A program made the translations under genes and the position numbers. DNA of 64,000 nt, from IMG/VR virus record IMGVR_UViG_3300044825_003205, positions 1 through 64,000 of that record. The stretch is one strand, 5' to 3'. The number at the start of each line of letters is the position of its first letter. Within the stretch, counting starts at the first letter, position 1. The notes under the pieces are model-generated. The model had not been told where the DNA came from. It searched no databases and was given only the letters and a program-made list of their open reading frames with translations. Source of the DNA: an uncultured virus (IMG/VR IMGVR_UViG_3300044825_003205). Its lineage: Duplodnaviria > Heunggongvirae > Uroviricota > Caudoviricetes. This document shows, one piece after another, positions 6,583 through 64,000 of the stretch.

Positions 6583-9500
6583 TTAAAAAGTAATTTTTGT
6601 TGCAACTTTTACTAACCAAGTACCTGATGTTACAACAGCCTTTAATCTTATATTACTACTATTAACATCAACTTGGAAACTTATACCTTCGGTCGAACCG
6701 TTTAGGTCAGGAGTTGAATATTCTGTATATGTCGTTCCTGAACAATTCCAAGCTGCAAGAACAACCCCTGTTCTGATTTCATTCGAAACCCCTTGAACAA
6801 AGTAATCAAAATTTGCAGATGAACCAGAAACACATGGAATTAAAGAAATTACAGTAGTCCCACTTGTTAACGAACTTCCCGATGCAGAGTCAACAAAAAC
6901 ATTACCCAATATGGTCAATGACTTTGTCGTGGAATCGTAAGTGAATCCTGATTCCGCAATTGCCCCATCAGTAGTACCGTCAGATGTCAGTATTCTTGTT
7001 AATGCAGGATTTTGTACTGTTGAGAATCCCGTACCACTTGTCCCTGAAGAACCACTTGTTCCCGATGAACCTGATGTGCCAGAACTTCCACTTGTTCCCG
7101 ATGAACCTGATGTGCCAGAACTTCCACTTGTCCCTGAAGAACCACTTGTTCCAGAACTTCCACTTGTCCCTGAAGAACCACTTGTTCCCGATGAACCTGA
7201 TGTGCCAGAACTTCCACTTGTCCCTGAAGAACCACTTGTTCCAGAACTTCCACTTGTCCCTGAAGAACCACTTGTTCCACTAGAACCTGAAGAACCATCT
7301 TGGCCATCTTGGCCAGGTTCTCCTGATGGTGCAACTTGCCAAGAACTATATACACCTGAACCAACGGTTTCTTCAGTGATATACGTTAAAGAATTAGTCG
7401 TTGATGATACTATCTTACCTATGATATAGTTTTGATAGTCGTAAGATATTATTGCATGTTGTCCTGGAACCCAACAAGTATCACCTGTAATTGAAATTGT
7501 ATTTTGTGCACTTCCACCAGATAAACAAGCAATATTAACAGTCCATGTATCGGATGTTCCCGATATTGATGTCTCAACTTTTAGATAATAAGTGTCGTTG
7601 TCTACATTTATAGTTTGATTTCCTGTTGTAGGTGTATTGATTGAAGGTCCCCAAGGTCCTGGATAAGTAGCAAAACCAACCCAACCACTTGTCCAAACAT
7701 TTGTAAGGGTCGAATCTTGTACTGTAAACCTATTTGGAACATCAATAGCATACCACTGTAAAGATATCGAGCCCGAAAAAGATAAATAATCGAGAGTTTT
7801 GGATGGATAAGTATAGAATCCGCTTGTACCTGCCGGTGAACTTTCAGTGAAAGAATAATCAGTACAAGTATTACCTGTCACAGATATTGTTGAGTCTGAT
7901 GTTACACATATATCAGGTGAGGTTCCACTCGTTCCTGATGAACCGCTTGTACCAGAGCTACCACTCGTTCCAGAACTTCCTGATGTTCCTGAACTTCCGC
8001 TAGTTCCTGATGAACCGCTTGTACCAGAGCTACCACTTGTTCCTGAAGAACCATCTGAACCTGATGTACCAGAACTTCCTGATGTTCCTGAAGAACCGCT
8101 TGTACCAGAACTTCCTGATGTTCCTGAAGAACCATCTGAACCTGAGGTTCCTGAGCTTCCGCTAGTTCCTGATGAACCGCTTGTACCAGAGCTACCACTT
8201 GTTCCTGAAGAACCATCCGAACCTGATGTACCAGAACTTCCTGATGTTCCTGAAGAACCGCTTGTACCAGAACTTCCTGATGTTCCTGAGCTTCCACTAG
8301 TTCCTGATGAACCGCTTGTACCAGAGCTACCACTTGTTCCTGAAGAACCATCCGAACCTGATGTTCCTGAGCTTCCACTAGTTCCTGAAGAACCGCTTGT
8401 ACCAGAACTTCCTGATGTTCCTGAAGAACCGCTTGTACCAGAACTTCCTGATGTTCCTGATGAACCATCTGAACCTGAGGTTCCTGAGCTTCCGCTAGTT
8501 CCTGATGAACCGCTTGTACCAGAGCTACCACTCGTTCCAGAACTTCCTGATGTTCCTGAACTTCCGCTAGTTCCTGATGAACCGCTTGTACCAGAGCTAC
8601 CACTTGTTCCTGAAGAACCATCCGAACCTGATGTACCAGAACTTCCTGATGTTCCTGAAGAACCGCTTGTACCAGAGCTACCACTCGTTCCAGAACTTCC
8701 TGATGTTCCTGAACTTCCGCTAGTTCCTGATGAACCGCTTGTACCAGAGCTACCACTTGTTCCTGAAGAACCATCCGAACCTGATGTACCAGAACTTCCT
8801 GATGTTCCTGAAGAACCGCTTGTACCAGAGCTACCACTCGTTCCAGAACTTCCTGATGTTCCTGAGCTTCCACTAGTTCCTGATGAACCGCTTGTACCAG
8901 AACTTCCTGATGTTCCTGATGAACCATCTGAACCTGATGTACCAGAACTTCCTGATGTTCCTGAAGAACCGCTTGTACCAGAACTTCCTGATGTTCCTGA
9001 ACTTCCACTAGTTCCTGATGAACCGCTTGTACCAGAACTTCCTGATGTTCCTGAGCTTCCACTAGTTCCTGATGAACCGCTTGTACCAGAACTTCCTGAT
9101 GTTCCTGATGAACCATCTGAACCTGAGGTTCCTGAGCTCCCGCTAGTTCCTGATGAACCGCTTGTACCAGAGCTACCACTTGTTCCTGAAGAACCATCCG
9201 AACCTGATGTTCCTGAGCTTCCACTAGTTCCTGATGAACCGCTTGTACCAGAGCTACCACTCGTTCCAGAACTTCCTGATGTTCCTGAACTTCCGCTAGT
9301 TCCTGATGAACCGCTTGTACCAGAGCTACCACTTGTTCCTGAAGAACCATCCGAACCTGATGTACCAGAACTTCCTGATGTTCCTGATGAACCATCTGAA
9401 CCTGAGGTTCCTGAGCTTCCGCTAGTTCCTGATGAACCGCTTGTACCAGAGCTACCACTTGTTCCTGAAGAACCATCCGAACCTGATGTACCAGAACTTC

Positions 9501-12054
9501 CTGATGTTCCTGAGCTTCCACTAGTTCCTGATGAACCGCTTGTACCAGAGCTACCACTTGTTCCTGAAGAACCATCCGAACCTGAGGTTCCTGAACTTCC
9601 GCTAGTTCCTGATGAACCGCTTGTACCAGAACTACCTGATGTACCTGATGAACCATCTGAACCTGAGGTTCCTGAGCTTCCGCTTGTACCAGAACTTCCT
9701 GATGTTCCTGAGCTTCCGCTTGTACCAGAACTTCCTGATGTTCCTGAAGAACCATCTGAACCTGAGGTTCCTGAGCTACCACTTGTTCCTGAAGAACCAT
9801 CCGAACCTGATGTTCCTGAGCTTCCACTAGTTCCTGATGAACCGCTTGTACCAGAGCTACCACTTGTTCCTGAAGAACCATCCGAACCTGATGTACCAGA
9901 GCTACCACTTGTTCCTGAAGAACCGCTTGTACCAGAGCTACCACTTGTTCCAGAACTTCCTGATGTTCCTGAACTTCCGCTAGTTCCTGATGAACCGCTT
10001 GTACCAGAGCTACCACTTGTTCCTGAAGAACCATCTGAACCTGATGTTCCTGAGCTTCCACTTGTTCCTGAACTACCACTCGTACCACTTGACCCTGAGC
10101 TTCCTGATGTACCAGCCGAACCACTGGTTCCTGATGAACCTGATGTTCCGTCCACACCTGAAATACCTGAGGTTCCTGATGTACCAGAACTACCTGAAGA
10201 GCCACTCGTTCCTGAACTTCCTGAAGAACCACTTGTTCCTGATGAACCTGATGTACCAGAACTTCCTGATGTTCCTGAACTACCTGATGAACCACTTGTT
10301 CCTGAACTACCTGACGTACCGGAACTTCCACTTGTTCCTGATGAACCATCTGTTCCAGAACTTCCTGAAGAACCAGATGTACCACTCGAACCCGAAGTAC
10401 CCGAAGTACCTGATACACCATCAACACCACTTGTACCTGAACTTCCTGATGTACCGCTAGAACCTGAAGAACCACTCGTTCCTGAAGAACCAGATGAACC
10501 ACTTGTACCTGAACTTCCTGAAGAACCACTCGTTCCTGAAGAACCAGATGAACCACTTGTACCTGAACTTCCTGAAGAACCACTTGAACCAGATGTGCCT
10601 GAGCTGCCTGATGTACCTGAGCTACCGCTTGTTCCTGATGAACCACTTGTTCCACTTGACCCAGATGTTCCTGATGTTCCTGATACACCATCAACTCCAC
10701 TAGTACCTGAACTTCCACTGGTTCCACTTGAACCAGATGTACCTGAACTGCCACTTGTTCCTGATGAACCTGATGTACCTGAACTACCACTCGTTCCTGA
10801 TGAACCTGAGGAACCACTCGTACCAGAACTTCCTGAGGTTCCTGAACTACCACTAGTTCCTGATGACCCTGATGTTCCGCTAGAACCCGATGTACCCGAA
10901 CTTCCATCACTGCCGGATGTTCCCGAAGAACCCGACGTTCCACTAGAACCAGATGTTCCTGAGGTACCCGACACACCATCTACACCACTCGTTCCTGAGG
11001 AACCTGATGTTCCTGAGGTACCTGATACACCATCAACACCACTCGTTCCTGAAGAACCACTTGTGCCAGAACTTCCTGAAGAGCCACTTGTACCTGATGA
11101 ACCTGAAGTTCCAGATGTACCAGAACTACCTGAAGTTCCAGATGTACCAGAACTACCACTAGTTCCTGATGAACCAGAAGTACCTGAGCTTCCCGATTCT
11201 CCACTTAGTGTTACAGTTACCGAACTACCACTACTTGTGACGGTAATACCCGAACCTACAAAATCTATTGAGGTAACTCCTGAAGCAATAGGTACTCCCC
11301 CACTTGATATTGTGAGTGGGTTACTTGTTGTCAGTCCTGTAATAGAAATTGTACCACCCGTGTTATTGTATAAATCCAAAGTGGAAGTGGCACTGAAGTA
11401 TGTACCTCCAGTTATATAGATGTCTAATGGAAATATTTTCCACTTAGCATCGTTTCTATCAACACCATCAACACCTTCGATTGTATTACCTGTCCACGCG
11501 TCAATAAATGCAACACCCTCAGGTGTACTCGAATTACACTCAATTGAAGTAATAATTTCTTTTGTTCCTGGAGGGTCTGTTGGGTATGTGAATTCAGAAT
11601 AGAATTCGTATAAAGCTCCCGACGCTAATGCGTCTGTATATAATTGTGAGTAATTTTCAAATGAAAATTGATAAACCTTATTTGTTTCTGCAACATAAAC
11701 AAGCATACCAACTTTTCTTCTACCTGATGAAATTCCATCATTATTGAGATGAAGAACGTTTGGAAAACCTATCGGCTCAAAATAATCAAAATCAATTGGG
11801 ATTGTCGTATTAATATCGACAACTTCTCCTGTAGTTCCTGAAGGTATAGTAAAAAGTAAATCAGAAAGAAAATTTACCGACATGTATCCACCAATGTTGT
11901 ACACATCCCATGTAATACCGTCATTGGTTGGTGGTAACGGAACTAATGGCCCTACACCTTGGAAGGTAATAAGCCCATCGTTACCCATTTCTAGGTAGTT
12001 ATCGTCTCCCCCATAGTTAATAATCGGTAATGAATTAGTTTCGTCTATCGGCAT
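6583..12054 (-). CDS. Giant fibre protein (1823 aa) with ~1200 residues of GSSGTS Gly-X-X repeats
   Basis: ORF track; globular N- and C-termini flank two Gly-X-X tracts; upstream TATTTAT motif. Confidence 0.85.
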   Translation of the reverse strand: MPIDETNSLPIINYGGDDNYLEMGNDGLITFQGVGPLVPLPPTNDGITWDVYNIGGYMSVNFLSDLLFTIPSGTTGEVVDINTTIPIDFDYFEPIGFPNVLHLNNDGISSGRRKVGMLVYVAETNKVYQFSFENYSQLYTDALASGALYEFYSEFTYPTDPPGTKEIITSIECNSSTPEGVAFIDAWTGNTIEGVDGVDRNDAKWKIFPLDIYITGGTYFSATSTLDLYNNTGGTISITGLTTSNPLTISSGGVPIASGVTSIDFVGSGITVTSSGSSVTVTLSGESGSSGTSGSSGTSGSSGTSGTSGSSGTSGTSGSSGTSGSSGSSGTSGSSGTSGVDGVSGTSGTSGSSGTSGVDGVSGTSGTSGSSGTSGSSGTSGSDGSSGTSGSSGTSGSSGTSGSSGTSGSSGTSGSSGSSGTSGSSGTSGSSGTSGSSGTSGSSGTSGSSGTSGVDGVSGTSGTSGSSGTSGSSGTSGSSGTSGSSGTSGSSGSSGSSGTSGSSGSSGTSGSSGSSGTSGSSGSSGTSGSSGSSGTSGSSGTSGVDGVSGTSGTSGSSGTSGSSGSSGTDGSSGTSGSSGTSGSSGTSGSSGSSGTSGSSGTSGSSGTSGSSGSSGTSGSSGSSGTSGTSGISGVDGTSGSSGTSGSAGTSGSSGSSGTSGSSGTSGSSGTSGSDGSSGTSGSSGTSGSSGTSGSSGTSGSSGTSGSSGTSGSSGTSGSSGTSGSDGSSGTSGSSGTSGSSGTSGSSGTSGSDGSSGTSGSSGTSGSDGSSGTSGSSGTSGSSGTSGSSGTSGSSGTSGSDGSSGTSGSSGTSGSSGTSGSSGTSGSDGSSGTSGSSGTSGSSGTSGSSGTSGSSGTSGSDGSSGTSGSSGTSGSSGTSGSSGTSGSDGSSGTSGSSGTSGSDGSSGTSGSSGTSGSSGTSGSSGTSGSSGTSGSSGTSGSSGTSGSSGTSGSDGSSGTSGSSGTSGSSGTSGSSGTSGSDGSSGTSGSSGTSGSSGTSGSSGTSGSSGTSGSSGTSGSSGTSGSSGTSGSSGTSGSSGTSGSDGSSGTSGSSGTSGSSGTSGSSGTSGSSGTSGSSGTSGSSGTSGSSGTSGSDGSSGTSGSSGTSGSSGTSGSSGTSGSSGTSGSSGTSGSSGTSGSSGTSGSDGSSGTSGSSGTSGSSGTSGSSGTSGSSGTSGSSGTSGSSGTSGSSGTSGSDGSSGTSGSSGTSGSSGTSGSSGTSGSSGTSGSSGTSGSDGSSGTSGSSGTSGSSGTSGSSGTSGSSGTSGSSGTSGSSGTSGSDGSSGTSGSSGTSGSSGTSGSSGTSGSDGSSGTSGSSGTSGSSGTSGSSGTSGSDGSSGTSGSSGTSGSSGTSGSSGTSGSSGTSGSSGTSGSSGTSGTSPDICVTSDSTISVTGNTCTDYSFTESSPAGTSGFYTYPSKTLDYLSFSGSISLQWYAIDVPNRFTVQDSTLTNVWTSGWVGFATYPGPWGPSINTPTTGNQTINVDNDTYYLKVETSISGTSDTWTVNIACLSGGSAQNTISITGDTCWVPGQHAIISYDYQNYIIGKIVSSTTNSLTYITEETVGSGVYSSWQVAPSGEPGQDGQDGSSGSSGTSGSSGTSGSSGTSGSSGTSGSSGTSGSSGTSGSSGTSGSSGTSGSSGTSGSSGTSGSSGTSGSSGTSGSSGTSGSSGTSGTGFSTVQNPALTRILTSDGTTDGAIAESGFTYDSTTKSLTILGNVFVDSASGSSLTSGTTVISLIPCVSGSSANFDYFVQGVSNEIRTGVVLAAWNCSGTTYTEYSTPDLNGSTEGISFQVDVNSSNIRLKAVVTSGTWLVKVATKITF
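7027..7325 (-). repeat. Short coding GSSGTS tract (~100 codons)
   Basis: Tandem 9/18-nt units such as gaaccacttgttcccgatgaacctgatgtgcca. Confidence 0.9.
7918..11202 (-). repeat. Long coding GSSGTS/GSD/GVD tandem repeat (~3.3 kb, ~1095 codons)
   Basis: Gly at every third residue throughout; 9-nt units with higher-order repeated blocks. Confidence 0.95.
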
Positions 12055-28238: not shown

Positions 28239-28325
28239 TAGACCTTTAATCTATAAATAGTTTAGGGCAAATTTTTAAAAACTTACCAACTTAAATCTAA
28301 ATGGGATAGAAAATAAATAAACCTA

Positions 28326-52828: not shown

Positions 52829-52854
52829 GTATAATTGGTTTCTATATAAATAGA

Positions 52855-55323: not shown

Positions 55324-58300
55324 TTAGATATTCTCGAACGAAGCACCTGTAGGTGTGATAAAGAATTCTATATCAATGAATTCAAGTGCTTTTGTTGGTT
55401 TTAGATAAATTTTACCTGTAAGTGTATTTCTATCCAAATCCTCAGGTGTAGACAATACTGTTACACGGAAATCATAAAGACCTCTGTCTCTTCTGATACC
55501 ATCAAGAATTGGGTTTACACTGTCAAGGAACTGTTGTCTCACAATTTGGTCGTTTTGTTCGAACAATAACCTTACCGCTACTGCTGAAATCAACTTACGA
55601 GCTTGTAAAAGTAATCTTCTAACATTCAATCTGTTGAGTGCAGAATCCGCAACTTGTAAAGTTTTGTTACCCCAAATTACAGTACCAACGTCAGAGAAAG
55701 TTGCAATTGGGTTTATTCTACCTTGATACAACGTATCTCTATCTTCTTGTGTTAGTTTCAATCTAGCTTTAACTGAATTTACAAGACCTCTCGTATAACC
55801 CGCTGATGCGAACCAAGGGAATGCAATATTATCAGTTAGTGCTAAGTTTCTACAAACCTCACCTGTTGGAGGAAGATACAATTGTGTATTGTTTACAGTA
55901 TCTCTAACCAAAATCCAAGGATAGTATGTTGCTGTATAATTTGAATCAATTGCTGAATTATCCAAGTTATCAACAGCTTCTTGTGGATAGATTATCAAGT
56001 CAGTATTGTTAGAATCTGTAGTATACATCGGATAATCTGGTGTTGTTGCTATGTATACAGAATCCGCTCTTGAGAATTGAATCATGTTGATAGCCGCTTC
56101 CACAAGCTTGGGATTGTTTACATAATCAATACTCGAAGTTGCAAATACATTGATATTAGTTGATTCAGGGTTTTGGAATGATAAGATACCGAGTAAGTAA
56201 GCATAATAATCGGTATTTGCAAAATCTTGTGAATTTTTATCGACAATTATCCTCTTAAACATACCTTCACCCGAAGCTGTTGGGTATCTTGTTGATGGAG
56301 CAGCTCCTGCTAAGTAACCCGAAGCACCCAATCTAAATCTATCTTCATTCGTTCTATACTCTCTGTAGATATCCCAACCATCGAATCCACCAGCAAAACA
56401 TACTGTGAATTTCCTTGAGTAGATATAATAGTACGGGTTTTCTTGACTTTCAATTTCTGCTCTGAATTCAGCATCTCCACAATCAAATGCAGTTTCACCA
56501 CTTGTTACATATTCAGAACCAATGGTCACAACAGTAGCACCTGAGTCCATATGGAAACCTTTAGTAAGGTAGTTCCAAGGTTCAGAGTCTGTTGCTACAC
56601 CCCAAGTTGCTGCTGAAGGATTTCTTTTACCTTTATATTGTAAGAAAGATAAATCAGTCCCTATTCTTGTTGAAAAACCTAAGTAAGTTCTTCTAACATT
56701 ATCACCGGCAGATTCATCTATTGAAGCACCCGCTGCGGAGATACCGAATGGAGGATTATAAATTACTTCACCAGGGAAATTGTATTGTGTTTTGTAGATT
56801 GGGACAGGAGAAGGGTTTGCAATTGTATCATAAACTCTTTGGTCGTAACCATAGAATCCACAAGGTAATGCATCTATTGGAGCTTCGTTAGAAAGTTCAA
56901 CCATTATGTTTGTTGATACTAATGGATATTCACCATCGAAAGAACCTATCTTTTTACCAATGAAGCTGTTAGAAGCTGGGTCCATTGTACAGTTAGTGAA
57001 TTTTTCAATCACTACCGGATTTTGGTCAGTATCAAAGAAGTCTCTCACCAATACATCAAAAGATAGATTTGAGAAAGAAATGTTCGCAATAGAAACCTTT
57101 ATTTGTGTGTTTGCATCAGAACCATCTGAAATAGAATGGAATCTAAATAACTTATAAACTTTATTACCTCTAAGTTCGGAAACTAAGAATGGGGTAAGAG
57201 GAGTTTGATATTTTTCTAAATTCCATGCAATAGAATCAGAATTATAAGAAACTGCGGCAGGGAGAGCAACCATATTACAATCCAAACCTCTGATGTAACC
57301 TTTATCATATAGTTCATTAAGTTCCACAGGATAGATTTCTTCAACAAAGATAGGAACTTCATTTCTATTTTTATCAAAGTTAGAAACACCCAAAACTTTA
57401 GTTAGGTACCTACTATCACTTATGGAGAATGAAGATTGGAAACTGAAGTTGTCGCCATCTGCTGTTACACCTGATAACAAGAAAGTTCCGAAAGGATTTT
57501 CACTAACTCCTGAGTAAGAACCTGTACAATCCATGATTAAATCTGTTGTACCTGTAACCTGATACTGAGGACCATGTAGTGTTGTAGAATAACTACTTAT
57601 TCCTCTAGAACGTAAAGTTGCTAATACTAGATTATTGTATTCAGAATATGCTGTACCTGAGTAAGAATATACGTTACCTGAAATAGTACCAGTAAAGTTT
57701 CCACCACCGCTATTCGTTAAAGAACTAACCACATAATTAAAAGAAAAACCTGAGTATTGATTACCTGAATAGTTTGAAAAATTCGAATAGTACCAAGGGT
57801 AGTTATCTCCATCGCTCAAAACATTTGATGAAAAATTCAAAGAATTTACACCAAATACGTTTGTGATTGCTGAGTAAGATGCCGAAAGAGCAGTGTAGTC
57901 AGCTCCGATAATCGAACCATAAACTATTGCAGTTGAGGCAGAAGAAGATGGTGTGTCCAATATTTGACCCAAATAAACTTGAAAATCATTATTAAAAGTT
58001 GAAGTCGAACCATCAGATAATCTATACTGAGAATTTAACAAAGCATTTACAGTAGCAGGTAGTGAGCCTGTTAAAGTAATTGTATTACCCGTTGAGTTAC
58101 CCGAGAAGTTACAAGTCCAAGGAGTACCTGAACCCTCAGACAAACCAATTGTTGAAGTATTAACGTTTGCCTTCGCCAATATAGTCCATGAAGGTCCTGC
58201 ATCATAACCTGAAAGACCTAAAATTCTTGTTACGAAAAGTTGGTTAGATTGTTGTAGATATGATTTAGCAATATATGCTGCTTCATATTTTGGGATTTGT

Positions 58301-58518
58301 GTACCCTGAAATTTTGTAGGTTCTGTCCCTCCAAAAAAAGATTGAAATTCATCGTAGTTTGTTATGAAAATAGGTTCGAAAGCGGGACCTCTAAGAGTCT
58401 CACCAACCAAACCCAACGTCGTAACACCTACACTCTGCGCCACAAAAGACAAGTCAGTTTCTGAGGTATAAACACCTGGAGAAACGAACACTTTCTGATT
58501 TACTTGAGCTGTTGCCAT
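55324..58518 (-). CDS. Tail sheath protein (T4 gp18-like), 1064 aa
   Basis: SPGVYTSETDLS, GETLRGPAFEP, PWFASAGYTRG, RINPI..WGNKTLQ..SALNRLNVRRLL, KPTKALEFI. Confidence 0.95.
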   Translation of the reverse strand: MATAQVNQKVFVSPGVYTSETDLSFVAQSVGVTTLGLVGETLRGPAFEPIFITNYDEFQSFFGGTEPTKFQGTQIPKYEAAYIAKSYLQQSNQLFVTRILGLSGYDAGPSWTILAKANVNTSTIGLSEGSGTPWTCNFSGNSTGNTITLTGSLPATVNALLNSQYRLSDGSTSTFNNDFQVYLGQILDTPSSSASTAIVYGSIIGADYTALSASYSAITNVFGVNSLNFSSNVLSDGDNYPWYYSNFSNYSGNQYSGFSFNYVVSSLTNSGGGNFTGTISGNVYSYSGTAYSEYNNLVLATLRSRGISSYSTTLHGPQYQVTGTTDLIMDCTGSYSGVSENPFGTFLLSGVTADGDNFSFQSSFSISDSRYLTKVLGVSNFDKNRNEVPIFVEEIYPVELNELYDKGYIRGLDCNMVALPAAVSYNSDSIAWNLEKYQTPLTPFLVSELRGNKVYKLFRFHSISDGSDANTQIKVSIANISFSNLSFDVLVRDFFDTDQNPVVIEKFTNCTMDPASNSFIGKKIGSFDGEYPLVSTNIMVELSNEAPIDALPCGFYGYDQRVYDTIANPSPVPIYKTQYNFPGEVIYNPPFGISAAGASIDESAGDNVRRTYLGFSTRIGTDLSFLQYKGKRNPSAATWGVATDSEPWNYLTKGFHMDSGATVVTIGSEYVTSGETAFDCGDAEFRAEIESQENPYYYIYSRKFTVCFAGGFDGWDIYREYRTNEDRFRLGASGYLAGAAPSTRYPTASGEGMFKRIIVDKNSQDFANTDYYAYLLGILSFQNPESTNINVFATSSIDYVNNPKLVEAAINMIQFSRADSVYIATTPDYPMYTTDSNNTDLIIYPQEAVDNLDNSAIDSNYTATYYPWILVRDTVNNTQLYLPPTGEVCRNLALTDNIAFPWFASAGYTRGLVNSVKARLKLTQEDRDTLYQGRINPIATFSDVGTVIWGNKTLQVADSALNRLNVRRLLLQARKLISAVAVRLLFEQNDQIVRQQFLDSVNPILDGIRRDRGLYDFRVTVLSTPEDLDRNTLTGKIYLKPTKALEFIDIEFFITPTGASFENI

Positions 58519-59847: not shown

Positions 59848-60375
59848 TTATAATTTATCACCAAATTTATTGAAAAAGAATTTAGGGATATCCGAGTGAC
59901 CCAAAGAAACCGAATATATGTCCTCCACCCCCGAATCTTTCAATTTATTTATTGCATATTTCAAAGAGGACGACCCCCATTGTCTTCCCTTTTGATAAAC
60001 TACCACCACATCTGAATTTTGAGGAATTTTTACTGATGTATACGAACCTTCTATTGAAGGGTCTATCAGTCCAACAAAGTTATAACCTTGTCCTATGGCC
60101 GGATAAGCTCTGAGACCACCCTTAGAAAACCCCGAAACAGAACTTATTTTTATCCCTTCAATTCTCCTTTTAACCTCATCAATTGTATATTGCCAAGGAA
60201 TAAAACAAAAAGGTTTGTTTCTTAATAAAGATTTAGGTACTTGTTCCATCATCCAATTAGGTGTTGCGTAATAAAGCCCTCCAAAAACCAAAGCCCCTGG
60301 TTCCGACTTGAAGTCATCTGGAACTGTTACAATTATTTCGCCAACCTTTTTAATTCTATAACCTAACTGTGACAT
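59848..60375 (-). CDS. Minimal alpha/beta-hydrolase-fold protein
   Basis: GFSKGG nucleophile elbow, GLIDP and C-terminal LGH. Confidence 0.55.
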   Translation of the reverse strand: MSQLGYRIKKVGEIIVTVPDDFKSEPGALVFGGLYYATPNWMMEQVPKSLLRNKPFCFIPWQYTIDEVKRRIEGIKISSVSGFSKGGLRAYPAIGQGYNFVGLIDPSIEGSYTSVKIPQNSDVVVVYQKGRQWGSSSLKYAINKLKDSGVEDIYSVSLGHSDIPKFFFNKFGDKL

Positions 60376-60380
60376 AACTT

Positions 60381-60896
60381 TTATATTCCTTTGAATTCAT
60401 TTTCATTTACAGGGGTTGCAGTAATCGTCCTGTAGAATGGTTTATAACCACCATAAGTATGTTTATTATCTGAAACTACCCTACCATCATCTGCAACTAC
60501 ATAATATCTCACTTTTCTTTCTGTTTCATAATAAGCAAAGTAGTCACCGAAAGCGATATCCACTTGTAGAGATTCCAAGTAGTTTTGATAAATAGAAAAT
60601 CTCATATTACCAGGTTCTTCCAACTCAACTTTACTTTGACCTATTTTCTGATTTGTAGGTTGAACAATTTGAACATAACCCTTGAGTTCAATAGGAGGTA
60701 AAAACTGAATTCCATCCTCAGGTGCTTCCCCATAAACATCATCCGTTTTGGTTTTGTATCTATCAATCCTATATAAAACTACAGTAAAATTCATGTCACC
60801 CTCTAGCCACTCTTGACCCATTTCAATGTCTAAGGCATAATCCTCAGCGCCGAAAAACTTACCAAGTCTTGTTATAGGGACTAATTTTTGTTCCAT
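60381..60896 (-). CDS. Neck/head-closure protein (gp14-like)
   Basis: VVLYRID..KTKTDDVYGEA..FLPPIEL...DIAFGDY; neck-region context. Confidence 0.6.
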   Translation of the reverse strand: MEQKLVPITRLGKFFGAEDYALDIEMGQEWLEGDMNFTVVLYRIDRYKTKTDDVYGEAPEDGIQFLPPIELKGYVQIVQPTNQKIGQSKVELEEPGNMRFSIYQNYLESLQVDIAFGDYFAYYETERKVRYYVVADDGRVVSDNKHTYGGYKPFYRTITATPVNENEFKGI

Positions 60897-60901
60897 AGTT
60901 A

Positions 60902-60933
60902 TTTGATAAATACTTAATTCTTGTTTATATTTT
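60902..60933 (+). promoter_or_regulatory. Near-consensus Bacteroidota promoter for the SET-SNF2 pair
   Basis: TTTG-N20-TATATTTT, one mismatch to TAnnTTTG, 12 nt before ATG 60946. Confidence 0.45.
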
Positions 60934-60945
60934 ATACAAAAATTA

Positions 60946-61344
60946 ATGAGAATATTTCCCCCTACGAAAATTTTTCTAGCGAAAAGCCCTATTCATGGGT
61001 ATGGAATATTTGCAAACTCTTTTATAAAAAAAGACGAAATAATCGAAGAGTGTCCTATTTTAGATTTGAAAGTTCCGAAAGGTGAAAGATGTGATATACT
61101 ATCTGACTATAGATTTAATTGGCCTTACGGAACTTCTGATTGGGAAAAACAAGTAGTCGCTTGGGGATGGGGTTCATTGTATAATCATTCAGAAACCCCA
61201 AACGCATCTTGGAGGTCAAATCATGAGAGAAATACTTTCGAGTTTTATGCTCTAACTGAAATAAATCCATTTGAAGAAATACTCATATTTTACGGAGGAA
61301 CTGACTATTGGTTGGATGGGAGAACACACGTTAATGTTATATGA
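60946..61344 (+). CDS. SET-domain protein-lysine methyltransferase
   Basis: SPIHGYGIFA...IKKDEIIEECP...GWGSLYNHSETPNA...FYALTEINPFEEILIFYG. Confidence 0.9.
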   Translation: MRIFPPTKIFLAKSPIHGYGIFANSFIKKDEIIEECPILDLKVPKGERCDILSDYRFNWPYGTSDWEKQVVAWGWGSLYNHSETPNASWRSNHERNTFEFYALTEINPFEEILIFYGGTDYWLDGRTHVNVI

Positions 61345-63095
61345 TGAATGAGGATACTTTAGAAAACAGAGCACTTGCAATACTTTCAGAATATGAAGGT
61401 TCAAATAATTTTATTTTAGAACTAAAAAGGAAATCTGAGATAAATAGAAGATTTTATCCTACAAGAAGTCAATCTGATTACATAATCAACAATCATACAA
61501 AACAACCAAAGGTTGCAAAAAAGTGGGTTGTATTAGATTCTTATTTTGCTTTAAAATTTGCAAACGATTGGAATTTAATAAGAATACCTGATAAGTTTTG
61601 GATTGAAAAACTTTTAACTGAAACAGAAAAAGCGTTTCATGTGTGGGGTAAAATTGAAGAAGACGGTGAACTTCGTGATTATTGGTTACCTAAAGCATCA
61701 ATAATAAAAGACAATACTGTCAAAGACGTTGTTATTGATTACAAAAAATATAAAAAACGTCCTCCAATGGAACACCAAAAGGAGGCAATACAAAAACTCG
61801 CAGAAAATAAAAGATTTATATTGGCGGATGACATGGGATTGGGTAAGACAACCTCAACCATAATCGCGGCATTAGAAACCGGTGCAAAGAAAATTTTAAT
61901 AATTTGTCCCGCAACTTTGAAAATAAATTGGAAGAGAGAAATTGAAAACTATTCTAAAAAAAGTGTCTTTATTGCGGAAGGTAAAAACTTTGAAACAAAT
62001 CACGATTTTGTAATCATCAACTACGATATAATTAAAAACTTTCACGACCCAAAGAAAAAAGGGGAATCTAAGATATTAGAAGGAAAGTTTGATTTGGTAA
62101 TAGTTGACGAAGCACATTATATCAAAAATGCTCAAGCTCAAAGAACAAAGTTAATAAATGACATTGTAAAAGATATCGAAAGGGTTTGGTTATTAACAGG
62201 AACTCCGATGACATCAAGACCTATAGATTACTTCAACTTATTGAGTTTGGTTGACTCACCTGTTGCAAAAAATTGGATGGCTTATGTTATAAGATATTGT
62301 GCGGGATATCAATTCAAAGTTGGCCCGAGAAAAGTGTGGAACGTCATGGGAGCGTCAAACTTAGAAGAATTAAGAGATAGAACAACAAACACAATATTAA
62401 GAAGACTCAAAGAAGACGTGCTCGATTTACCTGAAAAAATAATAACACCAATCTATTTGAGATTGAAATCTAAAGAATATGAAAACTTGATGGGTGAGTA
62501 TTACGAATGGTATAGAAGTAAGCCCGATGAATCCAATTCTCTCACCGTTCAGTTCACAAAACTTACAAAAGTAAGACAAGTTATAGCCAATGAAAAAACT
62601 TTACAAACTATAGAATTGGCCGAGAACATAATTGAACAAGGAAAAAAAGTAATCATTTTTTGTAATTTCACAGAATCCTTAGATTCAATAGTTCAACACT
62701 TCGGAAAGTCTGCGGTGAAGGTTAACGGTTCTATGTCCAAAGCTGAAAGACAAAATAGTGTAGACAGATTTCAAGAAGATGAGAAAGTCAAAGTGTTTGT
62801 AGGCAACATCAAAGCGGCTGGTGTTGGTATAACTTTGACAGCAGCTGAAGCCGTTATTATGAATGATTTATCTTTCTTACCTTCCGACCACTCTCAGGCA
62901 GAAGATAGAGCTTATCGTATTGGACAAAAGAACAATGTTCTTGTTTATTACCCTCTTTTCGAAAATACAATAGAAGGTTTGATTTACGATATTTTGATGG
63001 CAAAAAAACAAGTTATTGCCACGGTCATGGGTGATAATGTTAACAGTGCAGACTTCGTTGAAGAAATTATGAACAGAATCAACAAAGAGGCATAA
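61341..63095 (+). CDS. SNF2-family helicase/translocase (SMARCAL1/HARP-like)
   Basis: LADDMGLGKT, IVDEAHYIKN, LTGTP, LRRLKEDVLDLP, GVGITLT, QAEDRAYRIGQ. Confidence 0.92.
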   Translation: MMNEDTLENRALAILSEYEGSNNFILELKRKSEINRRFYPTRSQSDYIINNHTKQPKVAKKWVVLDSYFALKFANDWNLIRIPDKFWIEKLLTETEKAFHVWGKIEEDGELRDYWLPKASIIKDNTVKDVVIDYKKYKKRPPMEHQKEAIQKLAENKRFILADDMGLGKTTSTIIAALETGAKKILIICPATLKINWKREIENYSKKSVFIAEGKNFETNHDFVIINYDIIKNFHDPKKKGESKILEGKFDLVIVDEAHYIKNAQAQRTKLINDIVKDIERVWLLTGTPMTSRPIDYFNLLSLVDSPVAKNWMAYVIRYCAGYQFKVGPRKVWNVMGASNLEELRDRTTNTILRRLKEDVLDLPEKIITPIYLRLKSKEYENLMGEYYEWYRSKPDESNSLTVQFTKLTKVRQVIANEKTLQTIELAENIIEQGKKVIIFCNFTESLDSIVQHFGKSAVKVNGSMSKAERQNSVDRFQEDEKVKVFVGNIKAAGVGITLTAAEAVIMNDLSFLPSDHSQAEDRAYRIGQKNNVLVYYPLFENTIEGLIYDILMAKKQVIATVMGDNVNSADFVEEIMNRINKEA

Positions 63096-63127
63096 TAACA
63101 ATATTATCTATATAGATATTTATTGTT

Positions 63128-64000
63128 ATGTCAGTAATTGCAGAACCAGAAAGAAGTAAACTTTATACAAGAATCAAACATCTTTTAGGTGCACCGATAA
63201 GAAGTGTAGAAGTAGAAGATGAAATGATGGATTCATTGCTTGAATTAGCAATTGGAGATTACGAACAATATATATTGGATTGGTTAATTGAATCACAATG
63301 GGTTAACCTTGTTAATTTAGATATGAACAACCAATCAGTTGCCAACGCATTAATTACAAGAACTATGAACTTTGAACAACAGTTTCAATATTCATATTCG
63401 AAAATTGTTGGTCTTCAGACTAATGGTCCGTGGGTTCTGAAAAAAGACTATTTTACTTTAAGTGCAAATACACAAACTTATGAAATACCTGCAGGTCGTG
63501 AAGTGAATGAATTACTATGGTATAGTAATCAACCGTGGGGTCTTTTTGGATTAGCCGGTATGGGATTGGGTTTTGGATATGATGGTGCTGGTTTGGGTGC
63601 AAACCAATCGGGATATGCACAGTTTGGATACCAAGGTTCTTATTTTATGATGTCAGGATTCGACTACTTAGTTAGGGCTCAAGAAGCAAATATCTTGAAT
63701 AGAATTTTAGGTGGTAGTTTAACATACAGAATTACTGCATTACCTGATGGAAAAAAATTAGTTCATTTGATGAATACACCTAATGGTAGATTCAATTGGA
63801 CAAGTTATAGTCAATACGTTGGAAAAAATGTATGGTATTGGTACTACGATACTACAGGTAAAGATAGAAACGATTGTTTGAAGGCTAACCCCGATATTAT
63901 CAAATTACCTTCAGATGTACCTATTGGAGCTTTGGAGTGGGGAGACTTGAACGACCCTGCAAGACAATGGGTCCGTAGATGGTTCACAGCATATGTAAAA
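63128..64000 (+). CDS. Neck protein (T4 gp13-like), 3'-truncated by the window edge
   Basis: Not in the ORF track. MSVIAEPERSKLYTRIKHLLGAPIRSVEVEDEMM... is open to the end; LGAP..VE motif of gp13; TATTTAT at 63117-63123. Confidence 0.8.
   Translation, partial: MSVIAEPERSKLYTRIKHLLGAPIRSVEVEDEMMDSLLELAIGDYEQYILDWLIESQWVNLVNLDMNNQSVANALITRTMNFEQQFQYSYSKIVGLQTNGPWVLKKDYFTLSANTQTYEIPAGREVNELLWYSNQPWGLFGLAGMGLGFGYDGAGLGANQSGYAQFGYQGSYFMMSGFDYLVRAQEANILNRILGGSLTYRITALPDGKKLVHLMNTPNGRFNWTSYSQYVGKNVWYWYYDTTGKDRNDCLKANPDIIKLPSDVPIGALEWGDLNDPARQWVRRWFTAYVK

Follow-up and report, generated by a model that had tools for sequence, protein, structure and literature searches.

A SET methyltransferase gene overlapping an Snf2-family helicase gene

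We analysed a stretch of viral DNA, hereafter the window, with regard to a pair of adjacent genes close to its right-hand end; the window comprises the opening 64 kb of a virus record of 134,630 bp (IMG/VR IMGVR_UViG_3300044825_003205; CheckV completeness 41%). The first gene (60946..61344, plus strand, ATG start) has a PF00856 match and encodes a vSET-like SET methyltransferase of 132 amino acids, of the type designated I below. The second (61341..63095, plus strand, ATG start) encodes an Snf2-family ATPase/helicase of 584 amino acids with SNF2-rel_dom, Helicase_C and phrog_62 matches. Read directly from the bases, the two are joined by an ATGA stop/start overlap (61341..61344, plus strand), in which 61341–61343 is the helicase ATG and 61342–61344 the SET TGA. 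Ahead of the pair lies a sigma-70-like element, TTGATA-17 nt-TATATT (60903..60931, plus strand), with 10/12 consensus matches, which ends 15 nt before the SET ATG and sits in the 49-nt spacer between SET and a divergent 171-amino-acid gene.

To collect relatives of the locus, viral contigs were scanned for the helicase; there were 215 relatives, and the best 80 of them (72–100% helicase identity; L numbers below) were used as the census. Wherever a locus has both genes, the SET stop and the helicase start were −4 to +12 nt apart; values of −37 and −26 were set aside, as a script had picked the first in-frame TTG or ATG in these cases. With stop and start codons that overlap or abut in this way, SET and the helicase are predicted to form a translationally coupled pair.

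A sequence-only reading of the window had described the pair as phage-encoded, with a complete stand-alone SET domain whose TGA overlaps the ATG of an intact SNF2 ATPase, preceded by a near-consensus promoter of its own and placed among neck genes. Profile searches with PF00856 and SNF2 both gave matches above cut-off, and the domain is complete, with a full-length PF00856 match and all three of the motifs that had been named. The ATPase has both lobes above threshold and motifs I, II and VI, the ATGA overlap is as described, and the T4-type capsid, portal, protease, terminase, sheath, tube, baseplate and replication genes of the record place the pair in a phage. The promoter-like element was also borne out, as its pattern recurs in 76/80 loci, its function as a promoter being a prediction. 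The placing among neck genes was partly correct: the next gene downstream encodes a head–tail adaptor, and of the genes upstream the three from the tail sheath to SET had no family match (Pfam, PHROGs and NCBIfam).

The SET protein and its known relatives

SET enzymes are recognized by a GxG motif that binds SAM (S-adenosylmethionine), an NHS motif and a C-terminal catalytic tyrosine residue. The phage protein matched PF00856 with 55.9 bits (cut-off 22.4; E = 6.3e-15), residues 18–117 covering profile positions 1–105 of 105, and has HGYG at residues 17–20, YNHS at 79–82 and EEILIFYGG at 110–118. Gly20, Asn80, His81, Glu111 and Tyr116 were invariant in 47 aligned relatives with identities to the window protein down to 25%, and Tyr116 aligned with Tyr105 of vSET, which we take to be the catalytic tyrosine of that enzyme. 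The dN/dS ratio was 0.04–0.18 in 17/17 orthologous pairs, and all 71 SET copies detected in the 80 loci were in open frames of at least 60 amino acids. Given the invariant catalytic and SAM-binding residues together with the low dN/dS, the protein is very probably an active SAM-dependent methyltransferase; its specificity is most likely for lysine.

A model of the protein made with AF2 (AlphaFold2) from a 47-sequence alignment had a pLDDT (predicted local distance difference test) of 87 and a pTM (predicted template modelling score) of 0.81. Foldseek matched this model to 378 PDB chains at E ≤ 0.001, the first 50 listed being SET proteins; the top three were 4rz0, vSET (3kma) and Set7 (5h6z), followed by the SET domains of MLL, EZH2 and NSD. 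The best match in the viral structure library BFVD was a 'SET domain containing protein [uncultured Caudovirales phage]' with 40% identity, and in the ESM Atlas the protein was found among SET clusters that were ~90% viral (Uroviricota), together with one Bacteroidota cluster. No family-level annotation was obtained for it in PHROGs or NCBIfam.

The best PDB sequence match was vSET (A612L) of Paramecium bursaria chlorella virus 1 (1n3j/3kma), with E = 8.6e-13 for 1n3j over residues 8–124 and a fold match with a TM (template modelling) score of 0.71 on the query and 0.88 on the target at 28% identity. Like the phage protein, vSET is a virus-encoded minimal SET of ~120–130 amino acids without pre- or post-SET domains, and the two have in common the GxG, NHS and E-E-I-x-I-x-Y-G motifs and a C-terminal D-Y-W segment. 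They differ in that vSET, whose virus infects a eukaryote, acts on Lys27 of histone H3 according to its PDB title, whereas the phage protein meets a host without nucleosomes and is encoded by an optional cassette of which there are two paralogous types. The small stand-alone SET proteins Set7 of S. pombe (5h6z; E = 1.7e-11) and PFL0690c of P. falciparum (4rz0; E = 1e-9) were likewise matched, and were among the top Foldseek matches with 31–35% identity to the phage SET. Both are eukaryotic nuclear histone methyltransferases (known for Set7, putative for PFL0690c) without the helicase-operon context.

An archaeal SET protein (acting on MC1-alpha) and a chlamydial one have reportedly been found to methylate DNA-associated proteins, and they set a precedent for non-histone DNA-binding protein targets in the absence of nucleosomes. 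Among candidate substrates encoded by the phages themselves, HU/IHF (PF00216) was found in 0/4 clade records, in a search that did not include histones and MC1. The SET fold is, moreover, not restricted to lysine: BurB of Burkholderia thailandensis is reported (PMC12542666) to be a SET-domain methionine S-methyltransferase that uses SAM in the DMSP (dimethylsulfoniopropionate) pathway, a context that is not present at the phage locus. No BurB chain was among the eight PDB sequence matches of the phage protein at E up to 1.

SET genes of phages have been recorded before, so far as annotations only. ORF62 of Stenotrophomonas phage Ps15 is annotated as SET (PMC9025141), and BFVD contains SET annotations under 'uncultured Caudovirales phage'. 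Full-text literature searches brought up no functional work on a protein lysine methyltransferase encoded by a phage.

The helicase

Judged from its motifs and profile matches, the helicase is a genuine, intact Snf2-family ATPase. It matched SNF2-rel_dom with 102.7 bits (cut-off 24.9) and Helicase_C with 69.5 bits, has the motifs GLGKT, DEAH and QAEDRAYRIGQ, and belongs to phrog_62, 'DNA helicase' (E = 1.8e-117). Its best PDB sequence match was the Snf2/Rad54-family helicase of Sulfolobus (1z63; E = 1.8e-34, residues 160–563), and the 30 best-ranked phage helicase matches, mostly from cultured phages, had 26–33% identity. The N-terminal region of ~140 amino acids, for which there was no Pfam match and no usable Atlas match, sets it apart from both its phrog_62 relatives and 1z63. 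The full-length fold model was poor (pLDDT 67, pTM 0.39). Identities as ZorD, DpdE, DrmD or RapA were rejected on scores of 69–139 bits against NCBIfam cut-offs of 500–1500, and the PADLOC matches were generic helicase-core matches.

The helicase dN/dS was 0.01–0.05 in 16 pairs, one further pair being saturated. In the window's record (G000) and two complete relatives (G002 and G003), the helicase was the only protein with Helicase_C (PF00271), and since it is the only SF2 (superfamily 2) helicase found in the complete relatives, a core role as a replication or recombination enzyme is the more likely one. In T4, UvsW is the helicase that remodels forks and branches, and by analogy a UvsW-like role in fork or branch remodelling may be the simplest for the phage enzyme. 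In one related locus the helicase frame was interrupted (L088:4001-5742), giving an ORF (open reading frame) of 114 amino acids and one of 426.

Variation of the SET slot among related phages

Of 16 loci found via SET, 14 belong to the lineage of the window and have the order 171-amino-acid gene, SET, helicase wherever the DNA reaches; in L015 the DNA ends within SET and the helicase is not visible. In the census, tblastn placed SET directly upstream of the helicase in 69/80 loci, those without it being L036, L044, L049, L052, L054, L055, L059, L062, L086, L087 and L089, and a SET profile built from the clade detected one SET in 67 loci, two in tandem in two (L056 and L099) and none in 11. Identical helicase sequences were then collapsed, with L079 (helicase off the locus end) and L088 (broken frame) dropped, into 52 distinct variants including that of the window. 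SET was present in 43 of these and absent in nine. On a maximum-likelihood tree of the helicase the presence of SET took five gains or losses, at least four of which are forced by well-supported branches, and SET occurred on both sides of the midpoint root. Three relatives have records rated 100% complete (317–321 kb; terminal repeats in one of them). A single SET in the same place is present in each of G001 and G003, and a family search of the whole record of the third, the complete 317-kb genome G002, found no SET anywhere.

The content of the slot varied further. A tree of the SET proteins had two groups (SH-aLRT, the Shimodaira–Hasegawa-like approximate likelihood ratio test, 87 each), type I, including the window protein, and type II, including a short form ending ...INYxNG. 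Among the 52 helicase variants the slot held type I in 21, type II in 20, both in two and neither in nine, and these states need 13 changes on the helicase tree, the minimum possible being three. Both tandem loci have type II followed by type I. In L056 the first SET is 94% identical to the lone SET of L057; allele replacement between these two loci was ruled out, L056 having an extra second SET gene. Within a tight group of helicases (95–96% identical), type II alone (L080 and L083), type II plus type I (L099) and nothing (L089) were all found, and the turnover of SET within this group is real. In L036 the slot contains an unrelated 146-amino-acid ORF (L036:3600-4040, minus strand) instead of SET.

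The two SET types also account for much of the difference in conservation between the paired genes: median pairwise identity was 47% for SET against 85% for the helicase (903 pairs; Spearman 0.12), a gap that is largely due to the paralogy of the types. Residues conserved in a type-specific manner were found at positions 54–60 (YRFNWP.G in type I), 86–92 and in the C-terminal tail, 116–127 (YW.DGR in type I), the SAM-binding and catalytic motifs being common to both. In solved SET enzymes the SET-I insert and the C-terminal tail form the substrate groove. As the type-specific residues fall into these regions, types I and II probably differ in target. On the side of the helicase, the only column that tracked the presence of SET was position 581 (Asn as opposed to His, Tyr or Ser), which is not a lysine.

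Methyltransf_24 and 2OG-Fe(II) (2-oxoglutarate- and iron-dependent) oxygenase proteins, which occur in the clade, were considered as SET partners and rejected, as they are not beside SET and showed no convincing tracking in the three complete genomes, two of which are near-identical. Three 2OG-Fe(II) oxygenase matches were found in each of the SET-bearing genomes G001 and G003 (among them those at G001:C1:158311-158502 and G003:C1:162023-162214) and two in the SET-less G002, effectively a comparison of two genomes with no evidence of linkage.

SET genes outside the clade

Only 3/50,697 phage records matched the SET of the window (tblastn, E ≤ 1e-3), all of them huge uncultured phages. With two further viral-contig scans that used distant SET proteins, 25 viral loci outside the clade were assembled (~17 lineages by our own grouping), in 24 of which the clade SET profile detected SET. 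A helicase profile found an SNF2-like gene near SET in 0/25 of these loci, the distance covered being 5 kb, and 8 kb in L106 and L107. The neighbours found instead were PhoH (L106, L122, L140 and L142), sulfotransferase plus APS (adenosine 5′-phosphosulfate) kinase (L115 and L128), Methyltransf_24 (L130), ribonucleotide reductase plus dUTPase (L147), RecA-like plus DnaB-like proteins (L017) and SmpB (L129). In LR756511 a 173-amino-acid SET is next to, and convergent with, an SF2 helicase of phrog_16, which was rejected as an Snf2 homologue (BLASTP E = 0.019).

Tandem SET genes recurred in L016, L140/L141 and L145. In the last of these (L145:4911-10342) the two tandem copies have as neighbours a gene for a DruA-like-domain protein and a major capsid gene of the nucleocytoplasmic large DNA virus type; because of this giant-virus capsid gene the contig is not phage. 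2OG-Fe(II) oxygenases were found beside SET in three viral lineages, at L016:5094-6393 (tandem), L122:4467-5980 (flanking it on both sides) and L124:3763-7109, with a Hint/intein-domain protein, GNAT, PhoH or a tryptophan-halogenase-like gene near by. SET plus a 2OG-Fe(II) oxygenase could be a recurrent protein-modification gene set.

Among longer homologues there were two fusions of SET to a C-terminal class I Methyltransf_24 domain, the metagenome proteins P0121 (312 amino acids, SET domain 58% identical to that of the window) and P0122 (325 amino acids, 45%); L130 has both parts as adjacent genes. No fusion of SET to SNF2 was found among the longer homologues, which is a weak test. A scan of bacterial genomes with a single SET protein gave only two loci from MAGs (metagenome-assembled genomes) with 45–46% identity, L102 in a cellular context (ABC transporter, class I methyltransferase and RibD_C) and L103 with an in-frame stop codon in the SET match. 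The MAG whose SET is 45% identical and in a cellular gene context is gammaproteobacterial.

The promoter-like element and a gene-start motif

The sigma-70-like element was examined against the base composition and against the related loci. A loose promoter scan was not enriched in the AT-rich region (11 sites, against 13.4 ± 3.7 in shuffled sequences). The strict pattern TTGA[CTA]A-N16-18-TATA[AT]T occurred only twice on the two strands of the 134,630-bp record, one copy being that at 60903–60931. The sequence TTGATAAATA was found in 80/80 related loci, and a slightly looser −35/−10 pattern lay ≤1 kb upstream of the helicase in 76/80. In the SET-less loci the element directly precedes the helicase, which indicates that it belongs to the helicase operon and that SET was inserted behind it. 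From its match to the consensus and its conservation, we infer that the element is a promoter.

A second motif was found at gene starts. The pattern [ACT]TATTTAT[ATC] had 54 copies when both strands of the record were counted, and in 23 cases a gene on the same strand, usually a structural one, starts no more than 60 nt downstream; minus-strand copies at 28244-28252 and 52837-52845 are examples of the motif. The T4 late promoter TATAAATA reads TATTTATA in reverse complement, and the motif may be the late-gene signal of the clade. A plus-strand copy, ATATTTATT (63116..63124), ends 4 nt before the adaptor ATG (63128), and this suggests that the adaptor gene has a signal of its own. SET has no TATTTAT motif on its own strand, which is an indirect hint that it may not be a late gene.

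On the minus strand a copy of the motif, GTATTTATC (60905..60913), lies 12 nt upstream of the 171-amino-acid gene; it starts with G and so falls outside the strict pattern. This copy overlaps the −35-like hexamer, where the minus-strand bases read TATTTATCAA, and because of the overlap the conservation of the −35 part may serve the 171-amino-acid gene.

Neighbouring genes and the phage record

The divergent 171-amino-acid gene (60381..60896, minus strand) forms the conserved left boundary of the SET slot, with 71–100% identity in every related locus examined, and had no family in Pfam, PHROGs or NCBIfam. Beside it, a 175-amino-acid gene (59848-60375, minus strand) is variable, with 87–100% identity in the closest relatives of the window, 37–44% in L076 and L096, and no detectable counterpart in the other loci. 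Farther out is the tail sheath gene (55324-58518; Pfam and PHROGs), on the opposite strand to the helicase. On the other side of the pair is the gene for the 373-amino-acid head–tail adaptor of the neck (63128-64249, plus strand, the window ending at 64000; phrog_211 Ad2, E = 2.8e-12), which is 74–100% identical in relatives. Most relatives have an extra gene of ~510 amino acids in the gap between helicase and adaptor (e.g. L063:6033-7571 and L027:5801-7333), the N-terminal half of which is an Fe/Mn superoxide dismutase (Sod_Fe_N plus Sod_Fe_C) and the C-terminal ~280 amino acids of which have no Pfam or PHROG match. This fusion gene is absent from the window (63096-63127).

The record is a 134.6-kb fragment of an uncultured phage of the T4 superfamily with a genome of roughly 320 kb. 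A PHROGs scan of 94 ORFs found a T4-type core across it: major head protein (phrog_138), portal, prohead protease, large terminase, sheath, tube, and baseplate wedge and hub among the structural genes; a UvsX-like recombinase, a single-stranded DNA-binding protein, a DnaB-like helicase, DNA polymerase and ribonucleotide reductase among those of DNA metabolism; and, in addition, PhoH and a large cluster of glycosyltransferases and epimerases. There is no close cultured phage, and uncultured relatives are plentiful, as far as sequence comparison goes: megablast of 60300-63500 against the 50,697 phage records gave zero matches, and the best cultured match of the capsid protein was Flavobacterium phage vB_FspM_immuto (43.7% identity over 40% of the query). 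The Bacteroidota-type motif TAnnTTTG, considered as a pointer to the host, was not enriched upstream of genes (8/220 sites, compared with 7/192 in the control). The run labels of the relatives suggest a lake or freshwater origin. Elsewhere in the window, a gene for a collagen-like tail-fibre protein of 1823 amino acids (6583-12054, minus strand) stands out with a G+C content of up to 0.49, compared with ~0.34 elsewhere, and long ORFs are open in other frames along it, e.g. 7902-10979.

A probable accessory methyltransferase in a putative helicase operon

On balance, we think it somewhat more likely than not that the gene encodes an active vSET-like methyltransferase, most likely specific for lysine, and that it is an accessory cassette occupying the slot next to the promoter in an operon with the single Snf2 helicase of the phage. 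The conserved TTGATA-17-TATATT element, unlike the TATTTAT motif of the structural genes, would give rise to one transcript, and it would be used by the sigma-70-type polymerase of the host, which would imply early or middle timing. SET would be translated first, and with a helicase start that abuts or overlaps the SET stop, both proteins would be made together. The SET protein would bind SAM through its GxG, NHS and Tyr116 motifs and methylate a non-histone protein, candidates being a DNA-associated protein of the host or the phage, or another host factor; the two types, with their distinct SET-I inserts and C-terminal tails, would probably have distinct targets. The helicase would act as a core translocase of replication, recombination or repair that does not need SET. 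For the target we favour a host or phage protein, possibly a DNA-associated one, over virion proteins or small molecules.

Several points weigh against this view. SET stands beside the helicase, always in the same spot, in 43/52 variants, and a functional link would give the same picture. The census covers the best 80 of the 215 relatives. The promoter call consists of a consensus match and conservation, and a conserved motif on the minus strand shares bases with the −35 part, whose conservation may therefore not be its own. Lysine is not the substrate of every SET enzyme, as BurB illustrates (PMC12542666), and the sulfotransferase, 2OG-Fe(II) oxygenase and class I methyltransferase genes beside other viral SETs could mean non-protein chemistry.

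The most obvious of the other explanations is a true two-part machine, in which the Snf2 translocase would move along DNA or displace proteins from it, SET would methylate these proteins or the translocase itself, and the host nucleoid or the phage replication complex would be remodelled as a result. In eukaryotes, SET and SNF2 form the pairing of chromatin writer and remodeller; bacteria have no nucleosomes. The abutting of the genes wherever both occur, the constant position of SET in 43/52 variants, and the conserved promoter-like element common to both genes are what such a machine would lead one to expect, and the archaeal and chlamydial SETs reported to act on DNA-associated proteins and the distant SET of LR756511, which adjoins another SF2 helicase (phrog_16), point the same way. 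Nevertheless, the helicase does without SET in 9/52 variants and in a complete genome, paralogous SETs (median identity 47%) stand ahead of helicases that are much more alike (85%), the single helicase column that tracks SET (581) is not a lysine, none of the 25 outside loci has an SNF2-like gene, no SET–SNF2 fusion was seen in the weak test that the longer homologues allow, and the LR756511 helicase is no Snf2 homologue. We regard a two-part machine as unlikely.

The sequence-only reading had advanced such a writer/remodeller module, and this is the part of it that was not supported. An obligate module is contradicted by the SET-less variants and the complete genome G002, by the outside loci, by a slot that may hold either paralogue, both, none or an unrelated ORF, and by a promoter-like element that stands right before the helicase where SET is missing. 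The synteny that it had proposed to survey does link SET to the helicase (69/80 loci, 43/52 variants), but the linkage is dispensable and has changed independently at least four times. The outcome that it had named as contrary to a module, a sporadic insertion beside a core helicase with SET lacking in most relatives, describes the locus in spirit, but SET is not absent from most relatives. The adjacency of SET and SNF2 is best read as reflecting the place where an accessory gene is inserted, and not a chromatin-like machine.

A somewhat smaller chance attaches to the idea that SET acts on virion or assembly proteins, as a late or packaged enzyme. vSET is packaged in chlorovirus virions, and the phage SET gene is placed between the sheath-side genes and the head–tail adaptor. 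It lacks, however, an own-strand TATTTAT motif and has the different, sigma-70-like element in its place, it shares its orientation with a gene of DNA metabolism to which it is coupled, the downstream adaptor has its own TATTTAT copy, and the SETs outside the clade are mostly among nucleotide-metabolism or auxiliary genes (PhoH, ribonucleotide reductase, dUTPase and oxygenases).

Less probable again is a non-protein substrate such as a free amino acid, an amine-bearing sugar or a modified DNA base. Such chemistry would fit the sulfotransferase plus APS kinase, Methyltransf_24 and 2OG-Fe(II) oxygenase genes beside other viral SETs, the SET–Methyltransf_24 fusions, the large glycosyltransferase and epimerase cluster of this phage, and the methionine S-methyltransferase activity reported for the SET-domain enzyme BurB (PMC12542666). 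By sequence as well as by fold, however, the closest solved relatives are vSET and Set7, which methylate histone lysines, and PFL0690c, which putatively does so, BurB is missing from the eight PDB sequence matches (E up to 1), the tyrosine aligned with Tyr105 of vSET is invariant, and in the clade SET adjoins no small-molecule enzyme. Finally, a SET protein that has lost its activity or is in decay, and that linkage alone preserves as a remnant or a binding module, would be in keeping with its repeated losses and its lack of a PHROGs or NCBIfam family annotation, but is very improbable in view of the motifs invariant in 47 sequences, the dN/dS of 0.04–0.18, the 71 open copies and the confident fold model.

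The preferred reading of SET as an accessory cassette may be extended, although we consider the extension unlikely to hold as a whole. The slot would then be a host-interaction locus for two SET paralogues that differ in their substrate grooves. Under a promoter of host type they would be expressed early, and they would methylate lysines of DNA-associated or defence proteins of the bacterium, perhaps the very ones that the Snf2 translocase meets on DNA. If true, this would amount to a protein-methylation route to host takeover, and the gain, loss and doubling of SET among near-identical phages would mirror differences between their hosts.

The slot evidence corrects the attractive but unsupported analogy with the chromatin writer and remodeller. 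With variants that have type I, type II, both in tandem or no SET at all on nearly the same background, it also provides a ready comparison for the role of a SET protein where there are no histones.

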